A DNA stretch of 31,573 nt from Candidatus Gottesmanbacteria bacterium (lineage in GTDB: Bacteria > Patescibacteriota > Microgenomatia > UBA10105 > UBA927), in the NCBI GenBank assembly GCA_016218185.1, contig JACREP010000046.1:1-31573 (forward strand), written 5' to 3'. Below, in pieces: positions 3,703 through 29,546 of the stretch (position 1 is its first letter; every line of letters begins with the position of its first letter). The notes below the pieces were generated by a model. That model was not told where the DNA came from, ran no database searches, and saw nothing but the letters and a program-made list of their open reading frames with translations. The position numbers were made by a program, and so were the translations under genes.

Positions 3703-4764
3703 ATGCGGAATACCTATTTGATGCTTGAAGATGGAGAAGTGATTGAGGGTGTTGGGTTTGGTGGGCAGCGTACGGCATGCGGAGAAGTTGTATTCACCAC
3801 GGGTATGACCGGTTACCCGGAAAGTCTGACCGACCCGTCATTTGCAGGTCAGATCCTTGTGTTCACCTATCCGCTCATCGGTAATTACGGGGTTCCCAAG
3901 CCACAACTTCTTGATCATCACCTGATGGCGAATTTGGAGTCCGAACGGATTCAGGTGGCGGGAGTTGTTGTTTCTTCCGACGTGGAATCCCCCTCCCATT
4001 ACCAGATGGGCAAGCCGTTTTCCGATTGGCTGGAAAGCCAGAACATATCGGGGATTAGCCATGTCGACACCAGATCGCTCACACAAAAAATCCGCGGGAA
4101 AGGGACACTGCGCGGTGTTATAACACCCGCGAAACAATTTAGTTGGGATGAGCGTGCCTTACAAAACTTAGTTGCGAAGGTAAGTCTTCCGCAAATTGTT
4201 GATTACAAACCGAAACGCTCCAACGGGAAGCGACTGCTCCTTATTGATTGCGGGGTAAAGCACGCAATATTGCGGGAACTTCTGCATCGCGGGTATGCGG
4301 TGAAGCGGATTCCCTGGGACACTGATCCTTTGCCTTTTACTCACGGGATTGATGGTGTGGTCTGCTCCAACGGTCCGGGAGATCCCAAGGACTGCGGGGC
4401 AACGGTAGTCAATATCAAAAAACTTCTCAACAAAAAAATCCCCTTTTTAGGCATTTGTTTAGGCCATCAGCTGTTGGCGTTGGCGGTGGGAGCGGACACC
4501 TATAAACTTCCCTACGGTCACCGAGGGCTTAACCAGCCGTGTCAGGACGTTACCACAGGCCGTGCGTATGTTACGTCACAAAATCATGGATATGCAGTCA
4601 ATCGGAAGACCATCCCTAAGGGTTTTACGGAATGGTTTGTAAATCTCAATGATGGCACAAATGAAGGGCTGGTAAGCGCAAAGCAGAAAATTTGGAGTAC
4701 CCAGTTTCACCCGGAAGGAAATCCCGGACCGTCCGACACAAACTGGATATTTTCATTACTATAG
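3703..4764 (+). CDS. carA: Carbamoyl-phosphate synthase small (glutaminase) subunit
   Basis: GEVVFTTGMTGYPESLTDPSFAGQIL, SNGPGDP, nucleophile GICLGHQ, HRGLNQP, TSQNHGYAV, QFHPE. Confidence 0.98.
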   Translation: MRNTYLMLEDGEVIEGVGFGGQRTACGEVVFTTGMTGYPESLTDPSFAGQILVFTYPLIGNYGVPKPQLLDHHLMANLESERIQVAGVVVSSDVESPSHYQMGKPFSDWLESQNISGISHVDTRSLTQKIRGKGTLRGVITPAKQFSWDERALQNLVAKVSLPQIVDYKPKRSNGKRLLLIDCGVKHAILRELLHRGYAVKRIPWDTDPLPFTHGIDGVVCSNGPGDPKDCGATVVNIKKLLNKKIPFLGICLGHQLLALAVGADTYKLPYGHRGLNQPCQDVTTGRAYVTSQNHGYAVNRKTIPKGFTEWFVNLNDGTNEGLVSAKQKIWSTQFHPEGNPGPSDTNWIFSLL

Positions 4765-4766
4765 AC

Positions 4767-4829
4767 ACCTTTAAAGGTGAGACCTTGTTAATTACTGTAT
4801 TGAGGCTGACCTTTAAAGGTCTCACCTTG
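4767..4829. repeat. Two 21-bp nested-palindrome units (ACCTTTAAAGGT-NNN-ACCTTG), 42-bp period
   Basis: ACCTTTAAAGGTgagACCTTG at 4767-4787 and ACCTTTAAAGGTctcACCTTG at 4809-4829; 4774-4786 is the exact reverse complement of 4816-4828. Confidence 0.85.
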
Positions 4830-8044: not shown

Positions 8045-8066
8045 TACGACACAGTACTTAAACATA

Positions 8067-8099
8067 GACAAATACAGTTGCGACCGGAGTTGTATTTGT
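8067..8099. repeat. Palindrome ACAAAT-N20-ATTTGT, third copy of the PaaX-flanking element
   Basis: GACAAATACAGTTGCGACCGGAGTTGTATTTGT matches the reverse complement of the element at 15518-15563 at 26/33 positions without gaps; could also fold as a 12-bp RNA stem with G-U pairs. Confidence 0.75.
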
Positions 8100-8106
8100 A
8101 TAAGTT
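8078..8106 (+). promoter_or_regulatory. Putative internal promoter for pyrB and downstream genes
   Basis: TTGCGA (8078-8083), 17 bp, TAAGTT (8101-8106); overlaps the palindrome at 8067-8099. Confidence 0.4.
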
Positions 8107-13953: not shown

Positions 13954-14583
13954 ATGACCTCAACGGCCATTACTGTTGTTACCCATCCACTCATTAATCA
14001 TTCCTTAACCATTCTTCGCGATAAAAGTACGCAAACGGAGGAATTCCGGCGGCATGCGGATGTGGTGTCAAAGGTGCTTTTGATTGAGGCAACGAAGCAC
14101 ATGCTTCTCAGGGAGAAAAAGATCGAGACCCCGCTGGCCCCTTTTGCCGGTAAAAAACTTAAAGACGATGTTATCGTCGTTCCGGTTCTGCGTGCAGGTT
14201 TGGCCATGCTTATCGCCCTTCGAGACTTGTTGCCCGCTGTATTGGTGGGTTTTATAGGACTTGAACGCGATGAGAAAACGGCAATCGCACGGGCCTATTA
14301 TGAAAAAATACCAAAAATATTTTCCACACATATAGTCCTCGTCATTGATCCTATGTTGGCAACGGGAGGTTCGATGGACGATACGCTTAAAGCGGTCAAA
14401 GGCAAGGGCGCCAAACGGATCGTTGCCGTTTCTATTGTTTCCGCGCCGGAAGGGATTAAACGGGTTACCGAGAAACATCCAGATGTCCCTATTGTCACTG
14501 CTGCCATTGACAGTCACCTCAATGACCGCGCCTACATCGTCCCGGGCCTGGGCGACTTCGGCGACCGATATTTTGGTACATAA
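13954..14583 (+). CDS. upp: Uracil phosphoribosyltransferase
   Basis: THPLINHSLTILRD, VPVLRAGL, VIDPMLATGGS, YIVPGLGDFGDRYFGT. Confidence 0.98.
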   Translation: MTSTAITVVTHPLINHSLTILRDKSTQTEEFRRHADVVSKVLLIEATKHMLLREKKIETPLAPFAGKKLKDDVIVVPVLRAGLAMLIALRDLLPAVLVGFIGLERDEKTAIARAYYEKIPKIFSTHIVLVIDPMLATGGSMDDTLKAVKGKGAKRIVAVSIVSAPEGIKRVTEKHPDVPIVTAAIDSHLNDRAYIVPGLGDFGDRYFGT

Positions 14584-14655
14584 ATATCGTCATATAAAAC
14601 TTCCTCAAAGTTATTTGTTAAGTAAAACCAAGTTTAGCGAATAAGAGTGGAAAAA

Positions 14656-14701
14656 ATCTACGACAAATTCATCAGCGGCCGCTGTCAAATTTGTAGTAGC
14701 T
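14656..14701. repeat. 46-bp palindromic element, copy at the 3' end of the PaaX-like gene (contains its stop codon)
   Basis: ATCTACGACAAAT-TCATCAGCGGCCGCTGTCAA-ATTTGTAGTAGCT; 39/46 identical to the reverse complement of 15518-15563. Confidence 0.9.
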
Positions 14702-15491
14702 GAAGCTTCGGAAGTATGAGTTGATATGCTTTGTCACCGTTCCACCACCGGGGAAGAAGCTCAAAAGGCAGTTGAGGGTCATCTTTGAGAATGGTGAGAA
14801 ATGCAATGAGCATCCAATGGTCGAGGTGTTCGGATCGTTTGGTTTCTTTGATCCATTCGGTATAACGATCGTTGAGTATGTCCAGCCGCCACACGCGAGC
14901 AACGAGGCTGCGGAGATCTTCTTCGCCGATGGACGCATCGCTTCCCATGTCAGATACAATGATGGTGCCGACTAAACGGTGTTCGTGAATAAATGTACGC
15001 AGGGTGTCAATAGGATTGTACGGCGTAATCCATACAGAGTATTGAAGCTTTGCGGCGCCGATAGTGCGAATGAAATCCCGAAGTGCATCGCGTTCCTTAT
15101 GCTGTTTCTCCGGTATATCGTACGTAATTATGTGCATACGGGCATCCCATACGCGCTTTTCGTCATAAACTGGGATAATTTTCGAAAGTCGGCGTCTGCC
15201 TTCCAGGGTAATTTCCGGAAGTGCATGGCGCCTGCGCACTGCTGGTGCAAGAAGTTTGCGGCGGCGCGCATGAGTGATGGCGCGCATGATCGTTTCGTAG
15301 TTCCATTGTGATAGAAATCGGTCAGCGGCAAGCTTTGCTCGGAACGCTACTGCATGGGGAGATTGAGGAAGTCCGAGTGTTGCCACATAAACTGCGATCC
15401 AAAGTGATAGATCGACAACCGTTGAAAATATTTGCGTACCCAGTGGATCTGTGGGAACGACCCACTGGGTTCCGGACGTTTTGGTTCCCAT
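14685..15491 (-). CDS. PaaX-family transcriptional regulator (wHTH part + Cas2-like ferredoxin-fold middle domain + PaaX_C)
   Basis: TIMRAITHARRRKLL...EITLEGRRRL (wHTH-like), WDARMHIITYDIPEKQ..ERDALR..I...GAAKLQYSVWITP, VWRLDILNDRY, DDPQLPFELLPRWWNG. Confidence 0.88.
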   Translation of the reverse strand: MGTKTSGTQWVVPTDPLGTQIFSTVVDLSLWIAVYVATLGLPQSPHAVAFRAKLAADRFLSQWNYETIMRAITHARRRKLLAPAVRRRHALPEITLEGRRRLSKIIPVYDEKRVWDARMHIITYDIPEKQHKERDALRDFIRTIGAAKLQYSVWITPYNPIDTLRTFIHEHRLVGTIIVSDMGSDASIGEEDLRSLVARVWRLDILNDRYTEWIKETKRSEHLDHWMLIAFLTILKDDPQLPFELLPRWWNGDKAYQLILPKLQLLQI

Positions 15492-15499
15492 ATGCGTTT

Positions 15500-15528
15500 A
15501 CTATAACAAAAATGTGAATCTACGACAA
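15500..15528 (-). promoter_or_regulatory. Promoter of the PaaX-like gene
   Basis: Minus strand TTGTCG, 17 bp, TG-n-TATAGT (extended -10); ATG 8 nt after the -10. The -35 lies inside the palindrome arm. Confidence 0.7.
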
Positions 15529-15563
15529 ATAGAACAACGGCCGCAGATGAATTTGTCGTAGAT
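15518..15563. repeat. 46-bp palindromic element, upstream copy (perfect 13-bp arms), candidate operator
   Basis: ATCTACGACAAAT-N20-ATTTGTCGTAGAT; overlaps the paaX-like -35 and ends 14 bp before the divergent purF -35. Confidence 0.9.
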
Positions 15564-15577
15564 ATAAAAGTGATGTA

Positions 15578-15607
15578 TTGACAGCGGTTTGCATTGTAGG
15601 GTATGCT
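15578..15607 (+). promoter_or_regulatory. Promoter of the pur operon
   Basis: TTGACA (15578-15583), 18 bp, TATGCT (15602-15607). Confidence 0.65.
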
Positions 15608-15618
15608 CCAGAAGGAAT

Positions 15619-15660
15619 ACGGTAATGCCCTTTGTTGCGATGAGGGAGTGCCGTTTTTTT
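15619..15660 (+). terminator. Terminator-like hairpin plus T7 in the purF leader
   Basis: ACGGTA (15619-15624) pairs with TGCCGT (15649-15654), inner CCCT/AGGG stem; T run 15654-15660. Confidence 0.55.
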
Positions 15661-15765
15661 ATTGCCTCTTTTTAAAACCAAGGTGTATTGGTTTGCGGTT
15701 AAAGCCAGAATCGTTACCTTTTAGTATTGATTGTAATATCTGGTTTACGCAGTTTATTTGGCAAT

Positions 15766-17325
15766 ATGATTGCTCCGACCGCCCTTGAAAAAAAACCTCT
15801 CTGGGACCACTGCGGAATCGTTGCCGCGTTTGCTCCAAGCAACATTGCGTTTTTTGAAAAAGGACTTGGCGGGCTTACTGTCTTGCAGACGCGCGGGTAT
15901 GACGGCGCGGGATTTTGTGCATTGGGGACGAACGGATTTCTCGTACAACACAAAGGGATTGGCATGGTGCGGGAAGTATTTACACCGGAAGTGGTTGCCG
16001 AATTTCAGGCGTTTCGTGCCCATACATGGATCTATCAGGTGCGTTATGGGACCAACGGCGGATTTACCCAAGACAATGTGCAGCCGCTGGTGACAAAACA
16101 TGAGGCAAGCGGGGATATCTTTATGGTCGTGCACAACGGGCAGTTTGCTCAAAACAGAGAGGCAAAACCGGTTAACGAGAGTGATACGTTGTTGTTTGCC
16201 CGGCGACTGGCCCAAAGTGCAGGAGGCAGTTGGGACGAACGGATTGTGGAACAGCTTTCCTCCATAAACGGCGCGTGGAGTTTAGTGATTGGAACCCGCG
16301 ATGCGCTGTATGTCGCCCGTGATCCGTGGGGGTTCCGCCCGCTCGTATACGGGCACCTGTGGGATCCGTCGCTACGGGAGTTTATTTGGGCTGCGGCGTC
16401 CGAAACAAGCGCATTGGATGCCATGGGGGTGACGGATCATTTTGAACTCCTGCCGGGGACTGTAGCGAAAGTCACATCTTCCGGATTGGAAATTTTGGAT
16501 AAAGTGAAGCACCGGCAACGGGCGCTTTGTATTTTTGAAAATATTTATCTTCATCATGGGGCAGGACGAGCCCATCTGCCGCGAACCAGTCCGCGTGCCA
16601 TCAAACGGTCCCCCACGGTAGATGACGTGCGGAGACGAAGCGGCAAAATTTTGGCGCGCGAGGCGCCGCTAACCAGAAGCGATGTGGATATGGTCATTGG
16701 CGTACCGGGTACGGGGATTGAGGGCGGTATGGCGTTTGCCAGGACACTGGATCTGCCGTACTTTCAGGCAATCACAGATAAAGAGACAAGCCTCACCGAG
16801 CAGAGAACTTTCATGACCGCCCGCATCGACAGCATTTATCAAAAAGTCCTGGATCACTTTAGGTTTGACGGGCAGGCTCTCAAAGGCCGGCGCGTCGTAC
16901 TGGTGGACGATTCCGTCGTCCGGGGGAATATCACCCGCGGCCTGGTGGGTCTCTTGAAGGAGCAGTATCACGTGTTGGCTGTTCATCTTCGTATTGTGAG
17001 CCCGCCGATTGACAAGGCATGCCATTTAGGCGTGAACACGAGGACTGCGGATGAGCTTATCGCTGCTCGTTTAAACGGCGATGTGGAAAAAATCCGTCAG
17101 TCGTTGGGAGCTGATTCTCTGGCCTATTTAAGCGGTCAGGGATTGAAAGAAGCCCTTACCGGCGACCCCCGTGCTTCTGGGTTTTGCATGGGGTGCATGG
17201 CCGGACACTTGCCGCCGTTTGATCCCTACGGAATGCCATATCGAAAGACCGGGCGCCCCGTTGTTTTCAAAAAACAAAACCTGCCGAAACTTTCCTATGA
17301 CCAACCGCAGAATTTTGTTTACTGA
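15766..17325 (+). CDS. purF: Amidophosphoribosyltransferase, propeptide and Fe-S type
   Basis: 15-aa propeptide then Cys (DH|CGIV), QTRG, VRYGT, HNG, ARDPWGFRPL, VDDSVVRG, Fe-S Cys pattern (CIFE, CHLG, CMGC). ATG 15766 preferred over TTG 15727. Confidence 0.96.
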   Translation: MIAPTALEKKPLWDHCGIVAAFAPSNIAFFEKGLGGLTVLQTRGYDGAGFCALGTNGFLVQHKGIGMVREVFTPEVVAEFQAFRAHTWIYQVRYGTNGGFTQDNVQPLVTKHEASGDIFMVVHNGQFAQNREAKPVNESDTLLFARRLAQSAGGSWDERIVEQLSSINGAWSLVIGTRDALYVARDPWGFRPLVYGHLWDPSLREFIWAAASETSALDAMGVTDHFELLPGTVAKVTSSGLEILDKVKHRQRALCIFENIYLHHGAGRAHLPRTSPRAIKRSPTVDDVRRRSGKILAREAPLTRSDVDMVIGVPGTGIEGGMAFARTLDLPYFQAITDKETSLTEQRTFMTARIDSIYQKVLDHFRFDGQALKGRRVVLVDDSVVRGNITRGLVGLLKEQYHVLAVHLRIVSPPIDKACHLGVNTRTADELIAARLNGDVEKIRQSLGADSLAYLSGQGLKEALTGDPRASGFCMGCMAGHLPPFDPYGMPYRKTGRPVVFKKQNLPKLSYDQPQNFVY

Positions 17326-17388
17326 CGGTACACACGTGTATACGTGTAACGGGACGTTCCGAGGCTGCCGCCCCAGGATAGGAGGAAT

Positions 17389-18276
17389 ATGAACATATGT
17401 ATCAGTTCCACATTCGTTGGCCGTGATGGATACGGCCTGGTAACGCGCATTCTTGACGCCGTTGCAGAAGGTAAACTTCCGGGAATTACCGTTTCTGCGG
17501 TTATTTCCACACGGGAGTCGGGAGATGATAAAACATCCGATCAACTTCTCGCCAGATTACATGAAGCATATCCGGATGTACCTATCATCGCATATTCCGC
17601 CAAGCAACACGGAAGAATTAAACGAAAGCCCAGTGAAAAAGAAAAAGACCTGTATGATCTGGCAATTCTTGAACGTCTTGGAGCAGCAGATCTCAATATC
17701 ATGGTCGGAGACATGATTATTAAAGGACCGGAGTGGTGTCGGAAGCTTCCCAGTCTCAACCTCCACCCGGATTTGCCGCTTTCTTTGGGAGGGACAGAGG
17801 GGATGTATTGGGAAGTGATTGGCAAGTGGGTGCGGGACGGCCGAGGGGAAATAGGCGGTATGATGCATTTGGCTATACCAACGCTTGATGCCGGCACGCC
17901 GATTGCATATTTCCGCCTGCCGGCGCGGGGCACCGTCAATGGGGTTGATTTAGCACCGCTCTGGGATACGTTGCCGAAAGAACCCGATAAGCGGGAGGCT
18001 CTGATACAGCAACAAGTTGCGCTCAAAGATAAACCGACCCACCGGTTGTTTGTTGAGCTTCGGCGGGCAGAGGCAGCGTTTGAACAAAGACTGGTGTTGA
18101 GTACGATTACGATGTTTGCCCAAGATGAACTCGGTATACAGGAAGGAAGAGTGGTTGATAAAAATGGACAACCGCTTGAGAACGGTTTAGATATAACAGA
18201 GTGGGTTGTAGATGGAGCTGCGGTTTGGCCGGGAGGAGAAAGTAGCGGGAAATCTCGCAGTCCAGAAACTCAATGA
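17389..18276 (+). CDS. Divergent long formyltransferase, probable GAR transformylase (PurN-like)
   Basis: NLHP motif and GGMMHLAIPTLDAGTPI (catalytic Asn/His/Asp pattern of the formyltransferase family); sits between purF and purD; about 100 aa longer than standard PurN. Confidence 0.75.
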   Translation: MNICISSTFVGRDGYGLVTRILDAVAEGKLPGITVSAVISTRESGDDKTSDQLLARLHEAYPDVPIIAYSAKQHGRIKRKPSEKEKDLYDLAILERLGAADLNIMVGDMIIKGPEWCRKLPSLNLHPDLPLSLGGTEGMYWEVIGKWVRDGRGEIGGMMHLAIPTLDAGTPIAYFRLPARGTVNGVDLAPLWDTLPKEPDKREALIQQQVALKDKPTHRLFVELRRAEAAFEQRLVLSTITMFAQDELGIQEGRVVDKNGQPLENGLDITEWVVDGAAVWPGGESSGKSRSPETQ

Positions 18277-19619
18277 AACCGTACGATGTCATCGGGTCCG
18301 GAACGCGCACGAAGAGTCTTGATGCCGTTCTTATGCTAGAGAAAAAGAAGCGTGGTAAAAAACAAACCGTTTTAGTCATCGGATCAGGCGGTCGGGAACA
18401 TGCCATCGGCTGGAAACTTGCCCGGTCTTTGCAGGTTGGTAAGCTCTATTTCGCACCGGGTAACCCCGGTACCGGAGAAATCGGGGAAAACGTGCCCATA
18501 AAAGCAGACGATATTGAGGGATTAGTTGCTTTTGCAAAAACAAAAAACATAGACATTACCGTTGTTGGCACTGAGGCATCTCTGGTTGCCGGCATCGTGG
18601 ACCGGTTTGCTAAAGACGGTTTTCGTATTTTTGGCCCGAACAAACAAGCGGCCCGTCTGGAAACAAGCAAAGCATGGGCAGTGGAATTCATGGCGCGGCA
18701 TGGAGTCCCGCACCCAATTTCGGAAATCTTTGACCATCCGGGCGAGGCGCTTGCGTACGCGGAAAAGCTCGGCGGGCGGTGTGTGGTGAAAGCAGACGGA
18801 CTTTGTCAGGGCAAAGGGGTATTTGTCTGCAATTGGCAGGAAGAAGCTCGCAGGGCAGTGACCATGCTTATGGTGGACAAACTTTTCGGATCGGCCGGAG
18901 ATCGCGTGGTGATTCAGGAAAAATTAGAAGGCAAAGAAGTTTCCGTGATGGCGTTTTGCGACGGGTCACGTGCAGTGCCGTTGGTTGCGGTACAAGACTA
19001 CAAGCGCGCATATGACGGCGATCATGGCCCAAACACCGGCAGCATGGGTTCTGCGGCCCCGGCGAAACACGTGGGCCCGACTCTTTTGAAGAAAATCCAC
19101 CGACTGCTCACCCTTGCGGTAAAGGGCATGGGAGATGAAGGAGCAGCCTACCGCGGTATCCTGTATGCGGGTTTGATGATTGTGGACGGCAAGCCGTACA
19201 TTTTGGAATTTAACTGCCGTTTCGGTGACCCGGAGACGCAGGTACAACTTCCTCTTCTTGAAACCGATCTGTTGCCGATTCTGGAGGCGTGTATCGATGG
19301 CCGGCTGACGGCAGAGATGGTGCGCTGGAAGAAGGCTTCGGCAGTCTGCGTGGTATTGGCTTCCGAAGGGTATCCGGGTATCTACAAAACCGGAGAGATT
19401 GTCCGCGGACTTAGGCAACCAGCCGGTAATCACGGATTTATGGTATTTCACGCAGGAACATCACGCTTTGGCACCGTTGTTCAATCAGCCGGAGGCAGAG
19501 TCCTGGGCGTGACCGCTACGGCACCGACCGCTCGCGCCGCGAGAAAAAAAGCGTACGCTGCAATCGGAAATCCCCTGTCCTTTGAAGGCATGCAGTACAG
19601 GAAGGATATCGGTAAATAA
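18273..19619 (+). CDS. purD: Phosphoribosylamine-glycine ligase
   Basis: LVIGSGGREHA, APGNPG, KADGLCQGKGV, QDYKRAYDGDHGPNTGSMG, EFNCRFGDPETQ, HAGT, GGRVLGV, YRKDIG. Alternative start ATG 18333. Confidence 0.97.
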   Translation: MKPYDVIGSGTRTKSLDAVLMLEKKKRGKKQTVLVIGSGGREHAIGWKLARSLQVGKLYFAPGNPGTGEIGENVPIKADDIEGLVAFAKTKNIDITVVGTEASLVAGIVDRFAKDGFRIFGPNKQAARLETSKAWAVEFMARHGVPHPISEIFDHPGEALAYAEKLGGRCVVKADGLCQGKGVFVCNWQEEARRAVTMLMVDKLFGSAGDRVVIQEKLEGKEVSVMAFCDGSRAVPLVAVQDYKRAYDGDHGPNTGSMGSAAPAKHVGPTLLKKIHRLLTLAVKGMGDEGAAYRGILYAGLMIVDGKPYILEFNCRFGDPETQVQLPLLETDLLPILEACIDGRLTAEMVRWKKASAVCVVLASEGYPGIYKTGEIVRGLRQPAGNHGFMVFHAGTSRFGTVVQSAGGRVLGVTATAPTARAARKKAYAAIGNPLSFEGMQYRKDIGK

Positions 19620-19621
19620 CT

Positions 19622-22501
19622 ATGGAGACGGTGACACGGATTGAAGTAGTCACGACCGTTTGTGATTCGCGTGCATTTGTTTTGTACAAGCGGCTTGTTT
19701 CCGACGGATTTCGTCTCGCGCGTGTCCGGATCACGGATGTATATACGATCGATAAAAAATTTGCAGCCGGTGAACTTGCAAAAATCACTTCTCTTCTTGC
19801 TCACCCGCTGACGCAACGGGCAAGCCATACTATGCCGCTATCACCGGCAACGTTTTCCTGGGCTATCGAAATCGGGTATCTTCCGGGAGTCACTGACAAC
19901 GTTGCCGCAACGGTCCGCGAAATGATAGAAGATTTTACCGGAAAGCCGTTTGGGCATCATGAAGGAGTCTATACGTCGCGCGTCATGTTTTTTTCCGGAT
20001 CATTGACAGAATCCGAAGTGACGCGGATCGCTGAGCGTCTTTACAATCCGTTAATTGAACGCGCGAGCGTTAAAAGTTTTGCCGCGTTTCAAAAAGATAA
20101 CGGTATGGGGAAAAACATTCCGCGTGTCGTATTGTCCGCACCGCCTGCTGCTGATGAAGTGAGTCTGTCCGTAAGCGATAAGGAGTTGGCCTCTATCGGA
20201 ACACTGGGTGTTGCAAACCGGAATGGCACGCGTCGCGGGCCGCTGGCACTTGATATCTCTTCCATGAAAACGATCCGGGCGTACTTTCGCAAGCGGAAAA
20301 GAAACCCGACCGATGTAGAGCTTGAGTCTCTGGCACAGACGTGGAGCGAGCACTGCAAGCATACTATTTTTAATAGCCCTATTGATGATATCAAAGAAGG
20401 ACTGTTCCGGCGATACATAAAAGGGGCAACAGAACGCATCAGAAAGAAAAAAGGAAAGAGGGATTTTTGTGTCAGCGTGTTTTCTGATAATTCAGGAGCC
20501 ATCGTGTTTGATAAGCAGTTTCTCGTAACGCACAAAGTGGAAACGCACAACAGCCCGTCGGCGCTTGACCCGTTTGGCGGGGCCTTAACCGGCATCGTGG
20601 GAGTCAACCGCGATGCCATAGGCTTTGGGTTGGGGGCTAAGCCGGTGATCAACACGTACGGATTTTGCCTTGCCGATCCCCGCGACAAGACGATACTTTT
20701 TCGGGATCTGAACAAAACACAACCGATGCTTTCTGAAGCGAGGATTATGGAAGGGGTTGTTGCGGGGGTAAACAGCGGCGGCAACTGTTCCGGCATACCC
20801 ACGCCGCAGGGATTTTTGTATTTTGACCGGCGTTTTCGCGGAAAACCCCTGGTGTTTGTGGGAACTGTTGGGCTAATCCCCAAAATCGTCAGCGGCAGGA
20901 GGTCATACGAAAAAAAAGCCCGCCCGGGTGATTACATCGTTATGGTAGGCGGCAGGGTCGGGCTTGACGGCATCCACGGCGCCACGTTTTCTTCACAAGC
21001 CTTAACCAGCGGCAGTCCGGCAACAGCAGTACAGATCGGGGACCCCATAACACAGAAAAAGTTCAGTGACGCGATCGTGGGTGAAGCCCGAGACATGGGG
21101 CTTTTCCACAGTATTACCGACAATGGCGCGGGGGGGTTATCCTGTTCGGTTGCGGAAATGGCCAAAGAGTCCGGCGGATGTTTGGTGGAGCTTGAGAAGG
21201 TGCCGCTTAAGTATCCCGGACTTGCAGCGTGGCAAATCTGGATTTCCGAATCGCAGGAACGCATGACCCTGGCGGTCCCGAAGCATAAATGGCAGGCGTT
21301 GTCGCGTCTATTGAAGAGGCACGGAGTTGTGGCCACGGTGATCGGCACATTTACCCGTTCCGGACGATGCGTGGTAACTTACCGGGGAACAACAGTCATG
21401 GATGTGGATATAAAATTTTTGCATGACGGATTGCCAGCGCGCCAGATGCGCACGAAACCCATGCCGGCGGTCCGGAGGTCACCAAAACTCCCTCACGCGT
21501 CCGATCTCACACATTTATTTCTCTCCATGCTTTCCCGGCCGAATATCTCTAGTTTTTCATTTATTTCCCGTCAGTATGACCACGAGGTGCAGGGCAGTTC
21601 GGTTCTCAAGCCCCTGCAGGGAAGAGGAAAAGTCAATGCCGATGCGACGGTGACGCGACCGGTTTTATCATCCTTGCGCGGCATTGTGTTGTCCCAGGGG
21701 CTGTACCCGTCGTACAGCGATATTGACCCATATCGCATGGCGGCGTGTAGTTTAGATACCGCAGTACGAAACATTGTGGCCGCAGGAGCTGACCCTGACC
21801 GTATTGCGCTTTTGGACAATTTCTGCTGGTGCTCATCGCAGGACCCGGGACGACTTTGGCAGCTCAAACAGGCCGCCAAGGCTTGCTATGACTACGCGGT
21901 TGCCTACGGCACGCCGTTTATTTCCGGAAAAGACAGTATGTTCAATGATTTTACTGGGTTTGATGCACAGGGTAAGCCGGTTGCTATTTCCATTCCGCCG
22001 ACTCTTCTTATTTCCGCCATCGGTGTTGTTGCTGATAGTACAAAGGTCGTGTCCCTCGATGCGAAATTTCCCGGGGATCTGGTGTATCTTTTGGGTGAAA
22101 CGTACGATGAGGTAGGTGGGATTAATGCAAAAACAAACAGGAAACTTTATTTTGCCCTCAGCAGTGCAATACAACGCGGACTTGTGGCTTCCAGCCAAAG
22201 CGTGCACCGCGGCGGCGTAGCTGTTGCCATCGCCAAAACAGCACTGGCTGGGCTGTACGGAGTTGACGTGACGATTGACCGAGCGCCGTTTTCCGAAAGC
22301 CAGGGGCGTATTGTGGTGACCGTGGCGCCGCAAAACGCGAGGGCATTTGAAAACGTTATGACTGGTAATGCGTATGCCTGCATCGGCTCCGTGACAGAGA
22401 GGAAACGAATTCTTATGAAGGATCATGGAGGCAGAGTAATTGTTGATAGTTCACTTCATTATGCCCAGAGGTCATATCTGTCAACATTTAAGGAATATTG
22501 A
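19622..22501 (+). CDS. purL: FGAM synthase PurL with N-terminal fused PurS-like domains
   Basis: N-terminal ~150 aa with PGVTDN and NPLIE; WSEHCKH, KVETHNSPS, GGRVGLDGIHGAT, QIGDP, DNGAGG, SESQERM, QYDHEV, ISGKDSM; 959 aa. Confidence 0.95.
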   Translation: METVTRIEVVTTVCDSRAFVLYKRLVSDGFRLARVRITDVYTIDKKFAAGELAKITSLLAHPLTQRASHTMPLSPATFSWAIEIGYLPGVTDNVAATVREMIEDFTGKPFGHHEGVYTSRVMFFSGSLTESEVTRIAERLYNPLIERASVKSFAAFQKDNGMGKNIPRVVLSAPPAADEVSLSVSDKELASIGTLGVANRNGTRRGPLALDISSMKTIRAYFRKRKRNPTDVELESLAQTWSEHCKHTIFNSPIDDIKEGLFRRYIKGATERIRKKKGKRDFCVSVFSDNSGAIVFDKQFLVTHKVETHNSPSALDPFGGALTGIVGVNRDAIGFGLGAKPVINTYGFCLADPRDKTILFRDLNKTQPMLSEARIMEGVVAGVNSGGNCSGIPTPQGFLYFDRRFRGKPLVFVGTVGLIPKIVSGRRSYEKKARPGDYIVMVGGRVGLDGIHGATFSSQALTSGSPATAVQIGDPITQKKFSDAIVGEARDMGLFHSITDNGAGGLSCSVAEMAKESGGCLVELEKVPLKYPGLAAWQIWISESQERMTLAVPKHKWQALSRLLKRHGVVATVIGTFTRSGRCVVTYRGTTVMDVDIKFLHDGLPARQMRTKPMPAVRRSPKLPHASDLTHLFLSMLSRPNISSFSFISRQYDHEVQGSSVLKPLQGRGKVNADATVTRPVLSSLRGIVLSQGLYPSYSDIDPYRMAACSLDTAVRNIVAAGADPDRIALLDNFCWCSSQDPGRLWQLKQAAKACYDYAVAYGTPFISGKDSMFNDFTGFDAQGKPVAISIPPTLLISAIGVVADSTKVVSLDAKFPGDLVYLLGETYDEVGGINAKTNRKLYFALSSAIQRGLVASSQSVHRGGVAVAIAKTALAGLYGVDVTIDRAPFSESQGRIVVTVAPQNARAFENVMTGNAYACIGSVTERKRILMKDHGGRVIVDSSLHYAQRSYLSTFKEY

Positions 22502-22534
22502 CATATTAACATGTTAACATATTAATATATTCAT
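22495..22534. repeat. Five imperfect 8-bp tandem repeats (consensus ATATTAAC) between purL and purQ
   Basis: ATATTGAC ATATTAAC ATGTTAAC ATATTAAT ATATTCAT; includes TTGACA and palindromes TTAACATGTTAA and ATGTTAACAT. Confidence 0.7.
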
Positions 22535-22537
22535 TTT

Positions 22538-23338
22538 ATGAAAAAACCCAAAGCGATGATATTTTCCGGCTACGGGCTTAACTGTGAAGGGGAAACCAAA
22601 TATGCTTTTGAGCTTGCCGGCGCAGGCGCCGACATTGTTCACATCAATGACCTTGTGGATGGACGCAAAAAACTTTCGAGCTATCAAATTCTGGCATTTC
22701 CCGGAGGGTTTGCCTACGGTGACGACACGGGTGCGGGGAATGCGTATGCAGGGAAACTGAAGAATCATCTTTGGGAGGAAATAGTGAGTTTCGTCCCGGG
22801 TAATCATTTAATAATCGGCATTTGCAACGGGTGTCAGATTCTTGTAAATCTCGGGCTTTTCCCCGTCAGCAGCAAGCAGTACGAGGAGAGGGAAGCGGCA
22901 CTGCTTCAAAACGACTCGGGCCGTTATACGGTACGCTGGACGGACGTGAAAAGCGAAAGTTCCTCGCCCTGGCTTGCGGGCATCGATACCATGATGCTTC
23001 CGATTGCTCACGGTGAGGGAAAGTTTTATGCAACAGACAGAGTGCTTGCGACAATGAGAGAGAAAAAAATGATTGCTCTTCGGTATATTCACGGTGAGAT
23101 ATGCGCGTATCAGGGGCTTCCTGCCAATCCCACGGGGACGCTTGATGATATTGCAGCAATTACTGACCAAACCGGAAAGATTTTAGGTATCATGCCGCAC
23201 CCGGAGCGGGCCATATTCTTTACGCAGTTACCCCATTGGCCGTACCTTAAGGAGCAATATGTACGACGTAACATGCCGTTGCCTAAAGAGGGACCGGGGC
23301 TCAAAATATTTCAAAATGCCGTCGCCTATTTTGCGTAA
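22538..23338 (+). CDS. purQ: FGAM synthase glutaminase subunit
   Basis: GLNCEGET, PGGFAYGD, GICNGCQIL, NDSGRY, PIAHGEG, MPHPER triad. Confidence 0.97.
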   Translation: MKKPKAMIFSGYGLNCEGETKYAFELAGAGADIVHINDLVDGRKKLSSYQILAFPGGFAYGDDTGAGNAYAGKLKNHLWEEIVSFVPGNHLIIGICNGCQILVNLGLFPVSSKQYEEREAALLQNDSGRYTVRWTDVKSESSSPWLAGIDTMMLPIAHGEGKFYATDRVLATMREKKMIALRYIHGEICAYQGLPANPTGTLDDIAAITDQTGKILGIMPHPERAIFFTQLPHWPYLKEQYVRRNMPLPKEGPGLKIFQNAVAYFA

Positions 23339-23341
23339 ATC

Positions 23342-24352
23342 ATGAAACATCAACACTTTACGATCGCCACTCTGGGCAGCCACAGCGCTTTGCAAATACT
23401 CAAAGGAGCTAAGGATGAAGGGTTTAAAACGCTTCTGGTGGTGACGAAACATACGGAACCTTTTTATCGGCGGTTCACTTTTATTGATGACTTCATTGTC
23501 CTTCGTGCATTGGGTGATGTTATTTCTATAGAAAAAAGTTTACGAAAACGAAACGTCATCCTCATTCCGCATGGATCCTTTGTGGCGTATTTGGGCAAAG
23601 TTGGCAATAAACGGTTAACCGTACCCTATTACGGCAATAAAAAAGTCTTGGATTGGGAGGCAGACCGTACGCTCCAACGGCGTTGGCTAACCCGAGCAGG
23701 AATACATCAACCGAAACAATATAGACCCGATGAATCGATCCGCTTTCCCGTCATTGTGAAATCTTTTGGCGCTGCAGGCGGGTCGGGATATTTTATTGCA
23801 GCAAACAAGGCAGGATTAGACAAAAAAATTAAAGCAATGAAGCAGCATAAATACGTTATCCAACAATATGTCGTAGGGGTCACGTGCTACCTGCATTATT
23901 TTTATTCTCCTCTCACAAAATCGGTGGAGCTGATGAGCATTGACCGGCGGTATGAAACCAACGCGGACGCGCTCGGAAGAATTCCCCTTACCTATCAAAC
24001 CCCCTCTCTGGACCCAAGTTTCGTCGTTGTGGGCAACTCCCCACTCGTACTGCGCGAATCGCTTTTGCCGGAAGTACTCGCTATGGCTGAGCGCATTGTC
24101 TCTGCATCCCAAAAACTTATTGACCCGCGCGGTCTATTTGGCCCTTTTTGTCTGGAAACGATCATTACGCCGGATCAAAAATTTTATGCGATGGAGATAT
24201 CATGCAGGATTGTCGCCGGTACAAACTTATTTATTGAGGGTTCGCCCTACACGTGGTTAACGTATAATGAGCCGATGAGTACCGGCAGAAGAATTGCGCG
24301 GGAAATTAAAACCGCAATCAACAAAAACAAATTGGCTCTGCTTACCGGTTAA
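23342..24352 (+). CDS. purP: FAICAR synthetase PurP (archaeal-type ATP-grasp AICAR formyltransferase), paralog 1
   Basis: IATLGSHSALQILKGAKDEGF, PHGSFVAY, YFYSPL, DRRYETNAD, GNSPLVLRESLLP, GPFCLE, EISCRIVAGTN, MSTGRRIAREI. Confidence 0.9.
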   Translation: MKHQHFTIATLGSHSALQILKGAKDEGFKTLLVVTKHTEPFYRRFTFIDDFIVLRALGDVISIEKSLRKRNVILIPHGSFVAYLGKVGNKRLTVPYYGNKKVLDWEADRTLQRRWLTRAGIHQPKQYRPDESIRFPVIVKSFGAAGGSGYFIAANKAGLDKKIKAMKQHKYVIQQYVVGVTCYLHYFYSPLTKSVELMSIDRRYETNADALGRIPLTYQTPSLDPSFVVVGNSPLVLRESLLPEVLAMAERIVSASQKLIDPRGLFGPFCLETIITPDQKFYAMEISCRIVAGTNLFIEGSPYTWLTYNEPMSTGRRIAREIKTAINKNKLALLTG

Positions 24353-24355
24353 TAT

Positions 24356-25444
24356 ATGAAAATACCGACGATTGCCGTTTTGGGAAGCCACAGCGCCCTG
24401 GATGTTTGCCGCGGCGCCAAAGACGAGCGACTTGAGACGCTTGTAATTGCAGAAATCGGACGTGAGCAAACGTATGCTTCCTATTACAAATCCCGGCCAG
24501 GCATCGGATGTGTGGATGAATGTATGGTACTTGATCATTTTTCCGATATTCTTTCGCCGGATTTCCAAAAGAAGCTGCGGGCAAAAAACGTCATTTTCAT
24601 TCCCCACCGCTCGTTTGAAGCGTATCTTAATTTTGACTATCGCGCGATTGAAAACGATTTTCACGTTCCCATGTTTGGAAATAAGTATCTTCTGAAAATA
24701 GAAGAACGCCAAAGCCGGCCGAATCAGTATGATCTTTTAGAGGAAGCCAATATCCGATATCCCAAACAGTATAGTTCTCCTAAGGCGATCGACCGGTTGT
24801 GCATGGTAAAAGTATCTGAACGGACGCGTGTTTTTGAACGAGCATTTTTTCTCGTTTCCGGTTATCAGGACTATGTGAAAAAAACCAAAGAAATGATGGG
24901 TAACCAAAAAATTACCGGACAAGCCCTTGCCGCATCAGTCATTGAGGAATTTGTGGTTGGGACGCCGGTCAATTTCAATTTCTTTTACTCTCCTATTAAT
25001 AAACGTCTTGAACTTATGGGAACAGACACCAGAAGGCAGACAAATCTTGACGGAGTGCTTCGGGTTCCTGCGACATATCAGGAGGCCGTACTGAAATCTC
25101 TGCCGCTTACGTTTGAGGAATCAGGGCATATAGCAGTTACTGTTCTTGAGTCAATGCTGGAGAAAGCATTCAGTCTGGGTGAAGCATTTGTCGCAGCGAC
25201 GAAACGGTTATATCCACCGGGCATCATCGGACCGTTTGCCCTTCAGTCAATTATTACGTCAGGGCCTCCGAAAAAGGATATTGTCGTCATCGACGTATCT
25301 CCCCGCATGCCGGGGTCTCCCGGAATTTCTGCGACTCCTTACGGTGCATATCTGTATGGGAAATCAATGTCGGTAGGCAGACGGGTTGCAAAAGAAATCC
25401 GTGAAGCGTATACAAAGCATGCTATGGAAAGGATCATTACCTAG
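24356..25444 (+). CDS. PurP-like ATP-grasp protein, paralog 2 (divergent)
   Basis: IAVLGSHSALDVCRGAKDE, PHRSFEAY, FYSPI, DTRRQTNLDG, GHIAVTVLESMLE, GPFALQ, DVSPRMPGSPG, MSVGRRVAKEI. Confidence 0.85.
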   Translation: MKIPTIAVLGSHSALDVCRGAKDERLETLVIAEIGREQTYASYYKSRPGIGCVDECMVLDHFSDILSPDFQKKLRAKNVIFIPHRSFEAYLNFDYRAIENDFHVPMFGNKYLLKIEERQSRPNQYDLLEEANIRYPKQYSSPKAIDRLCMVKVSERTRVFERAFFLVSGYQDYVKKTKEMMGNQKITGQALAASVIEEFVVGTPVNFNFFYSPINKRLELMGTDTRRQTNLDGVLRVPATYQEAVLKSLPLTFEESGHIAVTVLESMLEKAFSLGEAFVAATKRLYPPGIIGPFALQSIITSGPPKKDIVVIDVSPRMPGSPGISATPYGAYLYGKSMSVGRRVAKEIREAYTKHAMERIIT

Positions 25445-25447
25445 TGT

Positions 25448-26857
25448 ATGCAAATACCTGATTTTTCCAATTACGTTTCTGCGCTTTCTTGGCGGTATGG
25501 GAGTGCCCCGATGCGGGGTATTTTCAGTGAACAAAATAAGTACAAAATCTGGCGCAGCATTTGGGTGGCACTGGCTGAAGCACAGTATAAAGCGGGATTA
25601 GTAAGTCTTGCGGAACTGAATGATCTTAGAAAACATAAAGATGACATGGATATAGAAAAAATCCTTGAGATAGAGAAAGAAACGAACCATGACCTGGTGG
25701 CAGCTATCCGCGAGTTTGCCCAAAAGGCCAAAATTGGCGGCGGCAAAATACACTTTGGAGCAACCAGTATGGATATCGTGGATAATGCCGACGCAATTCG
25801 CATACGCCAAGCACTGGCCTTGACTCAAAAAAATCTCGTTACACTCCTTGCATTGTTTGCAAGGCAAATTCACGCGTATGCAAATATTCCTTGTATGGGA
25901 TACACGCATCTGCAACCTGCGGAACCGATAACCGTGGGATACCGGCTCGCGTTCTATGCCCAGGATTTGCTCACCGATTTCACATTTCTGCAGTTTGTCC
26001 AATCGGTCTTCCAGGGTAAGGGACTGAAGGGAGCTGTCGGTACAAGGGCAAGTTATCAGGTAATCCTTAAAGGGACCTGCATGTCTGCCTCTGAATTTGA
26101 TGACCGCATCACCAAGGAACTCGGAATATCGGGAGCTCTTATTACCTCTCAAGTGTACCCGCGCAAGTACGACTATCTTGTGGTATCCCTTCTGGCAAGC
26201 ATTGCCTCCTCCGTAGCCAAATTTGCAGGGGACCTTAGAATTCTTCAGTCAGCAGGCATCGGCGAATGGAGTGAACCGTTCGGGAAAAAACAGGTAGGAT
26301 CTTCTGCTATGCCGTTTAAAAGAAATCCCATTAACTGCGAAAAAATCTGTTCGCTTGCGCGCTATGTGGCGGCCATCCCCTCAGTAGCACTGGAAAATGC
26401 GACATTGAGCTACCTGGAACGAACACTGGATGATTCTGCAAATAAACGGATCGTCGTTGCTGAGGGTTTTTTAGCGTTGGATGAAATACTCACTACTGCC
26501 CAAAAGATCGTTGATGGTTTGGTCATCAATACCCATCGCATCGCCCACAACGTCAACCAATATGCTCCATTTGCAGCAACGGAAACGCTTCTTATCATGC
26601 TTGTCAAACACGGTGCAGACCGCCAAAAAATGCATGAACTTCTCCGCACCATTTCCATGAAATCATCGGAGGCAATTCAGGCGGAAAAACCAAATCCCAT
26701 GAATCAACTGATCAAAGAGAATCCGACCATCCGTAAGTATTTAAAAGCAGCCGAAATTCATGAGTCGCTTGACGTTGCAAACCATGTCGGCGATGCACCG
26801 GAGCGCGCATTGAAACTGGTAAAAGAAATTAAAAAAACAATGAAGAATTATGGATAA
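25448..26857 (+). CDS. purB: Adenylosuccinate lyase
   Basis: HFGATSMD, GYTHLQPAEP, KGAVGT, signature GSSAMPFKRNP, LERTLDDSANKR. Confidence 0.97.
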   Translation: MQIPDFSNYVSALSWRYGSAPMRGIFSEQNKYKIWRSIWVALAEAQYKAGLVSLAELNDLRKHKDDMDIEKILEIEKETNHDLVAAIREFAQKAKIGGGKIHFGATSMDIVDNADAIRIRQALALTQKNLVTLLALFARQIHAYANIPCMGYTHLQPAEPITVGYRLAFYAQDLLTDFTFLQFVQSVFQGKGLKGAVGTRASYQVILKGTCMSASEFDDRITKELGISGALITSQVYPRKYDYLVVSLLASIASSVAKFAGDLRILQSAGIGEWSEPFGKKQVGSSAMPFKRNPINCEKICSLARYVAAIPSVALENATLSYLERTLDDSANKRIVVAEGFLALDEILTTAQKIVDGLVINTHRIAHNVNQYAPFAATETLLIMLVKHGADRQKMHELLRTISMKSSEAIQAEKPNPMNQLIKENPTIRKYLKAAEIHESLDVANHVGDAPERALKLVKEIKKTMKNYG

Positions 26858-27362
26858 ACCCAAAATCGCGGTTCTTTTGGGGAGCGATTCCGATCTTCCG
26901 GTCGCACGGGATGCGCTTGCGACGCTCGATGAGTTTCACGTACCCTTTGATGTGCGGATCTTTTCTGCCCATCGAAGTCCTGACGATACCGTAACCTATG
27001 TGAAGAAGGCCACGAGCAGCGGAGTGTTACTTTTTATTGCGGCAGCAGGAGGCGCTGCGCACCTGGCAGGGGTTATTGCTGCGCACACCACTCTTCCGGT
27101 TATCGGTATTCCCATACAGACCAAATCGCTGAGAGGCGTTGATTCGCTGTATTCTACCGTGCAGATGCCGCCCGGAGTGCCGGTGGCCACCGTCGGCATC
27201 AATGCCGCCAAAAACGCAGGGCTTTTGGCCATACAAATACTTGCAGTCGGCGATGCGCGGCTTACGAAGCAGTTAAAAACGTATAAGACACAGCTTGCAA
27301 AAGGCGTACGAAAGAAAAACACAGCGCTTGAGCGCTTGGGCTGGAAAAAATATGATATCTAA
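26850..27362 (+). CDS. purE: N5-CAIR mutase (class I PurE)
   Basis: [46 protein letters not shown]. Confidence 0.97.
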
Positions 27363-28389
27363 GGCAACGATTATTCGATCCCTGCCGTATGTGCTCAAAA
27401 CGATTGATATTCCCGGTTTGGGAAAAAAATATCAGGGCAAAGTGCGCGATTTTTATATCAAAAACGGTAAACGGATTCTTATCACGACGGACCGTCAGTC
27501 AGCCTTTGACGTTATCCTTGGACATATTCCGTTTAAGGGCGCAGTACTTAACCTGCTTTCTGCATTTTGGTTTGAGGAAACAAAAGATATCGTCCCAAAC
27601 CATATGATTTCTGTACCCGATCCCAACGTCATGATTACCCGGGATTGTACGCCCATACCCGTGGAGATGATTGTCCGCGGATATATTTCGGGGGTTACCA
27701 AAACATCGATTTGGTACTCGTACGAGCGTGGTGAACAGCTTATTTACGGTATACCGTTTCCGGATGGGCTCAAAAAAAACCAAAAGTTACCAAATCCTGT
27801 TATAACGCCAACAACACACCCTTTGGCCGGAAGTACTGTGCATGACGAGCGCTTGACCCGGGAGCAAATTATCAAGCAAAAGATTGTTCCCAAAAAGCTC
27901 TATGAGCAAATGGAGCGCGCTGCCTTGGCGCTATTTGCCCGGGGGACGCGCATCTGTGAGCGTCGGGGACTTATTCTGGTGGATACAAAGTACGAGTTTG
28001 GCATGTATAAGGGAAAACTTACCCTTATTGACGAGATTCACACGCCGGATTCATCACGTTTTTGGACGAAGGAGAGCTATGATCGCATATTTCATACCGA
28101 TGAAAAAGGCGAAGCCCCGAACCAACGCTCCTCCGACGCGAGGACGCAGACCTCGGGAGGAGGGAAGTTTGGTTCTGGGGAGCCGGATAATTTCGATAAG
28201 GAATTCTTGCGTCTCTGGTATGCCCAGCGCGGGTACCGCGGCGAAGGATCGCCACCAAAAATGCCCACAGAGCTCGTCATTGCACTCGCAAGGCGCTATA
28301 TTGCCGTCTACGAAAAAATCACAGGCAGGAAGTTTCGAGCATTCTCGTATCCGATTAATCAACGAATTATTCAGGCACTCACCACATGA
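27352..28389 (+). CDS. purC: SAICAR synthetase (long type) with a ~24-aa insertion
   Basis: [65 protein letters not shown] 27352 preferred over 27295. Confidence 0.96.
28122..28154 (+). repeat. Short element within the in-frame insertion of purC, related to the pyrF insert
   Basis: CCAACGCTCCTCCGACGCGAGGACGCAGACCTC, flanked by CCCGA...TCGGG inverted ends (28116-28120 / 28153-28157). Confidence 0.65.
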
Positions 28390-29486: not shown

Positions 29487-29512
29487 GCTTCAAAACGAGC
29501 TGCTTTACTTTT

Positions 29513-29541
29513 TTGACATGATCCCGTATCTTTGGTAACAT
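29513..29541 (+). promoter_or_regulatory. pyrG promoter, probably leaderless
   Basis: TTGACA (29513-29518), 17 bp, TAACAT (29536-29541); ATG begins at the 6th nt after the -10. Confidence 0.75.
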
Positions 29542-29546
29542 AGATT

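Follow-up and report, generated by a model that had tools for sequence, protein, structure and literature searches.

The DNA analyzed here (the window: 31,573 nt, GCA_016218185.1, contig JACREP010000046.1, positions 1-31,573, forward strand) comes from a 699-kb, 82.6% complete assembly (G000) of an ultra-small, Gottesmanbacteria-like groundwater bacterium of the candidate phyla radiation (CPR), and it carries a PaaX-like gene bracketed by two copies of a 46-bp palindrome. We conclude, with a probability of about 0.6, that gene and palindromes constitute a self-regulating module made of a PaaX-type binder and its sites, which behaves as a gain-or-loss cassette and is organized like the repetitive extragenic palindromic (REP) elements with their REP-associated tyrosine transposase (RAYT) genes. 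The unit would belong to a large, CPR-specific PaaX branch whose genes are each accompanied by the recognition site of their product, in two copies. Its anatomy, its specificity, the covariation of protein and site, presence/absence polymorphism, and homology that ends where the module ends can be read directly from sequence comparisons. A limited literature search yielded no paper on PaaX in CPR lineages or on the arrangement, and a gene bracketed as a cassette by its own palindrome pair is an arrangement that we have not found described in print.

A PaaX-type gene packaged with its own palindromes

Both 46-bp elements read ATCTACGACAAAT-N20-ATTTGT(C/A)GTAG(A/C)T, an arm pair that can be written ATCTACGACAAAT-N20-ATTTGTCGTAGAT, and no inverted repeat in the window is longer than the one that they make up (44 nt, 86% complementary). 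The initial annotation had described a PaaX-like gene whose flanking palindromes supply its -35 element and its stop codon; this anatomy is reproduced from the sequence and a promoter scan, down to the identities between the two elements, which our own count puts exactly where they had been placed (39/46 in the inverted and 36/46 in the direct register). In the upstream palindrome, the arm nearer the gene contains the predicted -35. The ATG at 15491 follows the predicted -10 by only 8-9 nt, which makes a leaderless mRNA probable. At the other end, the final codons CTA CTA CAA ATT TGA (LLQI, stop) lie inside the downstream palindrome, which is followed by T6 on the sense strand of the gene and has a predicted RNA fold of -16.6 kcal/mol (z -2.0). 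The neighbors are upp and purF, the purF -35 being located 15 bp past the upstream palindrome, and all other long open reading frames (ORFs) with family matches in the window are on the plus strand, in line with the description of the gene as the only minus-strand one in 31 kb. For the core ACAAAT-N20-ATTTGT, the window has 3 occurrences where 0.17 would be expected, a count reached by 0 of 100 shuffles, and the 699-kb genome has 6, each with a CGRCCG center, against 0 for a reversed control pattern. Only the full geometry is significant: a search of the window for the 13-nt arm alone, allowing 3 mismatches at most, gives 12 matches for an expectation of 8.7 and hence no enrichment. A third copy thus exists in the window (Table 1), and because still further solo copies exist in the genome, the pair belongs to a small, dispersed family and is not unique.

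Table 1. Coordinates of the module and associated features in the window
Feature	Position	Strand	Basis
PaaX-family gene, 268 aa	14685..15491	-	ORF and translation, Pfam, AlphaFold2/fold match, alignment
Upstream cognate palindrome, presumed operator; perfect 13-nt arms, CGGCCG center; overlaps the -35 of the gene	15518..15563	.	Sequence, repeat search
Downstream cognate palindrome; 2 mismatches in one arm, CGGCCG center; encodes LLQI + TGA	14656..14701	.	Sequence
Predicted promoter, TTGTCG-17-TATAGT, TG before -10	15500..15528	-	Consensus scan; -35 TTGTCG at 15523-15528
Solo, more diverged copy of the window palindrome type, in the carB/pyrB gap	8061..8106	.	Pattern and gap comparison
Segment present here, absent in G001: 72 bp + 908-bp module + 14 bp = 994 bp	14584..15577	.	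blastn

The protein has the PaaX fold and belongs to the PaaX family by fold and domains. It consists of a diverged N-terminal winged helix (residues ~47-105), a Cas2-like middle domain (~114-182), and a helical C terminus of the PaaX_C type; Pfam recognizes PaaX_M (8e-14) and PaaX_C (4e-5), both of which are matched in 28 of 28 aligned family members, and the N-terminal Pfam PaaX domain is unmatched. An AlphaFold2 model computed from this 28-member alignment (pLDDT 78) is confident from residue 65 on and weak before it, and its best Foldseek match in the PDB is E. coli PaaX (8A39, E 1.8e-8 over 276 columns), followed by Rv0674 (3KFW) and then, for the middle domain, by many Cas2 chains. Y124-D125 of the YDIPE motif is the counterpart of the Cas2 β1 motif with its metal-binding aspartate; it is invariant in the family alignment and replaced in E. 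coli PaaX and Rv0674 in a profile alignment. The protein is nonetheless neither the paa repressor nor a CRISPR Cas2. PaaX proper was rejected in view of the neighboring genes, of a score of 61.3 bits with the PaaX equivalog model TIGR02277 (paa operon repressor), far below its cutoff of 264.55, and of the lack of any PaaA/PaaC family match in the genome at 82.6% completeness. In the case of Cas2, the fold and the YD motif are present, and residues 119-161 pass the NCBIfam model TIGR01573 just above its cutoff (25.8 versus 24.5 bits), but no Cas1 was found in the genome, at the same completeness, and no CRISPR array in the window. PHROGs gave no match, and PADLOC gave only Cas2 models, over 40 residues.

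Bracketing extends to the family. The genome holds four paralogs (C8, C74, C69, and C118; 45-54% identical), each with a different palindrome, one copy upstream and one at the stop codon: arms AATATTGT with center CACGGTCGTG for C74, GTAGTCAAT with CGACCG for C69, and TTATTTATAA with GCTGTAGC for C118, which has two downstream copies, in opposite orientation. Some modules thus have a third palindrome past the downstream one, at 4184-4291 in L041 (C118) and about 300 bp downstream of the gene in L090. We scored the best ungapped match between upstream and downstream flanks, with a threshold of ≥15, in 87 nonredundant relatives from Gottesmanbacteria, other Microgenomates, and unclassified Patescibacteria. 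The expectation in the initial annotation that solo PaaX-like genes each carry their own palindrome pair is borne out by 4 of 4 paralogs here and by 71 of the 87 relatives (median score 21.5), and homologs do carry downstream copies. As a null set, we used 207 ORFs of 200-350 aa from this genome (median 9, 95th percentile 14.7), among which the highest scores belong to the four PaaX-like paralogs (35, 29, 28, and 23) and to four IS200-like Y1-transposase (RAYT-type) genes with their own REP-like palindromes (C25:3392-4006, C38:558-1235, C35:2193-2864 on the minus strand, and C45:2010-2690). The C38-type REP (ACCTTTAAAGGTGAGACCTTG) is itself present in two copies in the window, at 4764-4829 between carA and carB. 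A profile search returns 184 PaaX-like clusters (50% identity) at E ≤1e-30 and 2,267 at E ≤1e-10. The relatives have up to 11 matches per ~1-Mb genome. A distant branch of ~230-250 aa (loci L252-L263) matches the middle domain only and is also bracketed, by shorter palindromes with TTGACAAAA-type arms and the centers CCATGG, CACGTG, CGGCCG, CTATAG, and CTTAAG.

Site anatomy and the pairing of protein with site

Measured over 59 upstream/downstream pairs, the site has three parts: variable arms, a loose 7-nt spacer, and a palindromic center hexamer, mostly CGRYCG. Two-fold symmetry is 0.90-0.98 at 2-4 nt from the center, falls to 0.41-0.47 at 7-10 (the spacer), and rises again to 0.68-0.90 at 11-21 (the arms); likewise, upstream and downstream copies agree at 0.85-0.93 in arms and center and diverge in the spacers. 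CGGCCG is the most frequent hexamer (23 pairs), ahead of CGACCG (8), CACGTG (8), and CGGTCG (5), and then CTATAG, CTGTAG, CGATCG, CTCGAG, and CAGCTG. The arms of the window site are 20 nt apart at their inner ends and ~31 bp apart center to center. The published E. coli PaaX operator, TGATTC-N27-GAATCA, likewise consists of widely spaced inverted repeats, and PaaX proteins act as repressors (PMC9493321); by its geometry and its position the window site would be an operator of this type, with two short inverted repeats ~27 bp apart that overlap the regulated promoter. An AT-rich overlapping palindrome (ATATTGACATATTAACATGTTAACATATTAATAT) at 22494-22537, located between a purL-like ORF and the gene after it, bears no relation to the PaaX-type sites.

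Both copies are tied to the ends of the gene. The center of the upstream copy has two preferred offsets from the predicted start codon, ~-47 and ~-13. Of the 59 upstream copies, 35 have a sense-strand TTGAC at a fixed offset (+11 or -11), compared with 15 of the 59 downstream ones, and either promoter design puts the predicted transcription start at or beside the start codon. The upstream copy would therefore be outside the transcript of its own gene, since the predicted promoter lies within or after it. The center of the downstream copy is within ~23 nt of the stop codon in most pairs, so that C-terminal tails are palindrome encoded, and many family members end in LRPQ or LRSQ, read from CGGCCGCA or CGGTCGCA.

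These features bear on whether the palindromes act in DNA or in RNA. We consider it very improbable that they serve as transcript hairpins (terminator, stabilizer, or processing site) that a Cas2/VapD-like domain binds or cuts. The folding of the downstream copy followed by U6, that of the solo copy before pyrB (z -4.0), and the RNases among Cas2 and VapD relatives would all fit such a role, but the upstream copy lies outside the predicted transcript, and the spacers are unpaired and yet the palindromic center hexamer is kept, for which a hairpin loop gives no reason. Arm mismatches in the transcribed downstream copy are of the G-U type in 38 cases, of the A-C type in 33, and of other types in 131, and hence without a G-U excess; the T-run past the downstream copy is not general among paralogs, and Rfam has no match in the window or in 14500-15800. 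With the upstream copy predicted to be untranscribed, spacers unpaired, the loop hexamer kept, and neither a wobble signature nor an Rfam match, we take recognition of double-stranded DNA by a symmetric oligomer as the best reading of the sites. A terminator side role of the downstream copy is possible in the window unit, because this copy folds and is followed by U6.

Protein and site change together. The arms track the putative recognition helix (residues 64-77), with NYEVIKNA..TARKRGW accompanying GTAGTCAA arms and NYDTIKRGIAEARRRG accompanying ATATTGTTAT arms, and across sister pairs (n=16) arm divergence correlates best with the winged-helix segment (rho 0.81), although all four protein segments correlate with it, which makes the assignment of the arms to the winged helix weak. 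A clearer signal comes from residue 128, the E of YDIPE. Of 52 modules without a CG step at the center, 50 have E at this position, against 0 of 15 with a central CG step, in which it is T/A/V with CACGTG, N with CTCGAG, and K/T with TACGTA. Distant relatives of 230-250 aa have the same tendency (E with CGGCCG, A/R with CACGTG, K with CCATGG, and V with CTTAAG). The center type changes 7 times on the tree, giving 7 contrasts over all branches; the 4 contrasts on well-supported branches all run in the same direction, and sign tests on these (p 0.125-0.25) fall short of formal significance, 4 contrasts being too few to reach p 0.05. Because residue 128 tracks the center hexamer, the covariation is suggestive of a Cas2-type loop lying at the center of the site.

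We posit that the protein most likely forms an oligomer with two-fold symmetry on double-stranded DNA. Its winged helices would read the outer arms, which are variable and, like the repeats of the E. coli PaaX operator, stand some three helical turns from each other, and its Cas2-like domain would lie over the palindromic center hexamer. DNA binding, repression, and the oligomeric state are what we infer from the patterns above; a homodimer prediction for two chains of the 268-aa protein scored 0.27, below the mark used, a score that speaks neither for nor against binding. Binding to the upstream copy would cover the -35 of the leaderless promoter and thereby repress transcription of the gene itself, and such autoregulation is plausible because the -35 lies inside the upstream site. 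The downstream copy, which marks the other end of the unit, may be a second operator, a roadblock, or, in the window unit, a terminator hairpin.

Gain, loss, and relocation of the unit and its palindromes

The gene order pyrF-pyrE-upp-pyrG is found in nine relatives, among them G001, which belongs to the same genus (upp 90% and pyrG 96% identical). In G001, the upp stop codon is followed by 10 bp and then by a promoter/leader that matches window positions 15578-15664 at 70-73% identity; by blastn, the G001 upp 3' end corresponds to window 14381-14583 and the next G001 bases to the promoter/leader, and the 994 bp that separate the two here, including the 908-bp unit, are absent. Another relative, G005, has upp, a gene for a 183-aa phosphoribosyltransferase, and purF, and no PaaX-like gene at all. 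Neighbors upp or purF are shared by 0 of 30 homolog loci, and hence there is no orthologous filled site among them. Two groundwater runs contain the region, as short low-depth Logan contigs, with no joint that skips the module, the listed joints being from other organisms; these contigs are uninformative in either direction.

The surroundings of the unit vary in their own right. In the nine relatives upp is followed directly by pyrG, and here the PaaX-like unit and the whole pur operon (~15 kb, 14584-29546) stand between them; purF was found in 9 of the 41 genomes searched, this genome included. The purF promoter/leader, conserved in G001 (on the minus strand at ~1400-1490 of L188), precedes a ~100-aa winged-helix ORF there, not purF; as it has no Rfam match, it is an orphan structured leader.

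A second comparison comes from elsewhere in the family. Two modules from different genomes (L090 and L109) are 87% identical in DNA over 913 bp and have unrelated flanks, and their homology ends at the outer ends of the upstream and downstream palindromes. In at least 12 relatives, the genes on either side of L109 directly adjoin each other and the module is missing. In one relative (L168, G072) this gap contains a hicA/hicB-like pair along with a BRO-N-like gene, and a remnant of a BRO-N 3' end is still visible beside the PaaX-like module of L109. Other orthologous pairs keep both flanks, with the module diverging faster, as in L106/L113, whose proteins are 71% and right-flank genes 99% identical. 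These comparisons indicate that the unit is an accessory cassette, mostly inherited in place, occasionally gained, lost, or moved, and diverging fast together with its sites; the stretch from palindrome to palindrome is the discrete entity that is gained, lost, and relocated over evolution. The initial annotation had proposed testing whether palindromes co-vary with the winged helix and looking for empty sites in relatives, with a fixed position in all relatives refuting mobility: protein and site do change together, and the unit is absent both at the homologous upp/leader junction of G001 and between the L109 flanking genes of other relatives. The two alternatives that it offered each stand in part: the mobile cassette in its evolutionary behavior, with homology ending at palindromes and empty sites elsewhere, and autoregulation as a plausible consequence of the -35 lying in the upstream site. 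Looping between the two copies, insulation of the pyr and pur blocks, and cutting through the YDIPE aspartate, which it had also put forward, are conjectural.

Palindromes also occur without the gene. The window type has five further copies, in the carB/pyrB gap and at C4:718, C11:1115, C46:97, and C71:2205, and of the other types, that of C69 has one solo copy (at C73:2500), that of C118 three, and that of C74 none; several solo copies fill short gaps just before start codons. The solo copy fills the carB/pyrB gap, which measures 66 bp here. In G001 the gap is -6 bp, and in most other relatives with this junction preserved it is -10 to +34 bp; the element is absent from G001 and from those relatives. 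The C71 copy lies in frame in a surface loop of GatB that exceeds its counterpart in solved GatB structures by at least 10 aa and that has different repeats in other relatives. This loop (between EPSISI and LPxYRVE; loci L047-L075) ranges from ~6 to ~40 residues among CPR relatives, and its repeats, hexamer tandem repeats or other palindromes, vary by genome although gatB is an essential gene; since both length and repeats differ among relatives, the loop is an insertion hotspot. The C73 copy lies in a RecX linker that is 16 aa longer than that of G001 and at least 6 aa longer than in six other relatives. Judged by these alignments, the carB/pyrB and gatB copies are lineage-specific insertions, the recX copy is probably another, and such copies may be bound once inserted. 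Single palindromes would thereby have spread to new places, including in frame into genes, and the 46-bp elements would explain why a lineage can have short inserts of its own between genes and within essential ones, gatB among them.

The solo copies bear on the possibility that the protein is an ordinary transcription factor with a small regulon, whose operators arose in place and which controls its own gene, pyrB, and perhaps purF, with nothing mobile about it. The -35 inside the upstream site, the solo copy just before pyrB, the purF -35 close to the upstream copy, the sites in short gaps right before start codons, the widely spaced inverted repeats bound by PaaX repressors (PMC9493321), and the many orthologs that retain their genomic context are all what such a factor would lead one to expect. 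We regard this reading as unlikely because the carB/pyrB site is missing from G001 and most other relatives with the junction, solo copies lie in frame within gatB and recX, the unit is absent at the homologous G001 site, homology elsewhere is bounded by the module with unrelated flanks and empty sites, and promoter control leaves the family-wide downstream copy at the stop codon unexplained. The idea of a PaaX-controlled nucleotide regulon is weakened in particular, as the solo copies appear to be insertions and not conserved regulatory sites.

Several observations weigh against the cassette reading that we favor. Besides the indiscriminate arm correlation and the few residue-128 contrasts described above, the promoter is a consensus match only, and hence a prediction; no target-site duplication is evident at the window unit, as had been noted at the outset, or at the L090/L109 junctions; and no transposase or recombinase domain, Y1_Tnp included, was recognized in Pfam, NCBIfam, and PHROGs scans. 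The two copies are in direct orientation in 37 of the 59 pairs and inverted in 19, with 3 ties, a mixture that fits neither a simple transposon nor simple site-specific integration. Many orthologous pairs stay in conserved contexts, which makes movement only occasional; copies within one genome are old (45-54% identity) and none is recent; and G000 and G001 could differ because the unit was lost from G001, with no gain in G000.

Some of the same observations count against an autonomous mobile element, in which the PaaX/Cas2-like protein would be a site-specific nuclease or recombinase whose Cas2-type loop (Y124-D125, specificity residue 128) cuts or exchanges strands at the center hexamer, moves the cassette, and seeds solo palindromes. 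Such an element would accord with the invariance of Y124-D125 and its loss in E. coli PaaX and Rv0674, the passing of the Cas2 cutoff, a residue 128 that tracks the hexamer and places the loop at the site center, cassette-bounded homology with empty sites, the many matches per genome, and a genome in which no Cas1 was found. We nevertheless find this doubtful: we know of no catalytic activity in the PaaX family, target-site duplications and recent identical copies within a genome are wanting, the two copies are in mixed orientation, and D125 could be structural or ligand binding. The mover could also be the four Y1 transposases in the genome, or general recombination at hotspots; one of the same sites is occupied by a hicAB pair. 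If the nuclease or recombinase reading were true, the module would represent a mobile element of a new class, with the Cas2 fold at its core, and would bear on how Cas2 and palindromic CRISPR repeats came together.

Comparison with known systems

A self-regulating binder-and-site module has an obvious point of reference in PaaX itself (E. coli and Pseudomonas; 8A39, 3L09; Pfam PaaX, PaaX_M, and PaaX_C; TIGR02277), with which the window protein shares the three-part fold and which is its best PDB match. PaaX is a phenylacetyl-CoA-responsive repressor that controls its own synthesis by blocking the promoter of its gene. A pair of short inverted repeats, spaced by some three turns of the helix, forms its operator, which resembles the window sites (PMC9493321). 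The CPR branch differs in the lack of paa genes in this genome, the failure of TIGR02277 by a wide margin, and an unmatched N-terminal Pfam domain; it retains the YD motif of Cas2, which was lost in PaaX, has sites with a conserved palindromic center hexamer and genes bracketed by two sites, and has expanded, with 4 copies here and up to 11 matches per genome in relatives, each with its own specificity. Such genes should not be annotated as phenylacetate regulators. CPR genomes are tiny, and yet several copies of the module are kept; if our reading is true, they hold a natural library of orthogonal protein/operator pairs with a readable code, in which arms would correspond to the winged helix and the center hexamer to one residue of a Cas2-type loop.

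Cas2 and VapD share the ferredoxin-like middle domain, which matches many Cas2 structures, keeps the β1 YD with the metal-binding aspartate, passes the NCBIfam Cas2 cutoff, and matches PADLOC Cas2 models. Here, in contrast, the domain is fused to a winged helix and PaaX_C, no Cas1 or repeat array accompanies it, and it appears to help read a specific hexamer, which to our knowledge has not been described as a role of Cas2. If that is true, the Cas2 fold gains a sequence-reading role on palindromic DNA, and whether Cas2-like domains handled palindromic repeats outside CRISPR becomes testable.

Other systems resemble the module in part. The lox and FRT sites also have inverted arms around a central core, but their arms are 6-8 nt apart, not 20, and the unit encodes neither a tyrosine nor a serine recombinase; a lox-like integration model predicts direct repeats only, and the mixed orientations are no clean fit. 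Type II toxin-antitoxin cassettes are likewise small, self-regulating accessory units in variable hotspots, and in a relative a hicAB pair is found at the very intergenic site of a module, but the module has a single gene and no toxin partner. An insertion sequence or transposon was rejected as well: repeat ends and module-bounded homology are present, but there is no target-site duplication, no match to a transposase family, and no uniform repeat orientation.

A parallel in organization is offered by REP/REPIN elements with RAYT genes, which encode IS200/IS605-like Y1 enzymes. As in the PaaX-like module, the gene is flanked by its own cognate palindromes, with one palindrome family per paralog, solo copies are scattered in intergenic gaps, and relocation is occasional in an otherwise mostly vertical inheritance; the flank-repeat test, applied to this genome, picks exactly these two gene classes, the PaaX-like paralogs and the Y1/RAYT-like genes. 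Membership in the REP/RAYT class itself was rejected, for although flanking and dispersed palindromes are present, the Y1_Tnp domain is absent, and genuine Y1_Tnp/REP genes lie elsewhere in the genome. The PaaX-like protein is unrelated and has no HUH/Y1 domain, and any catalytic role would be conjectural; its palindromes are long and tripartite (~38-46 bp), whereas REPs are short GC-rich hairpins, and they overlap promoter and stop codon, with 1-5 solo copies per type here. If our reading is true, the PaaX-like modules represent a second, independent partnership of a gene with its palindromes beside REP/RAYT, built on an unrelated protein.

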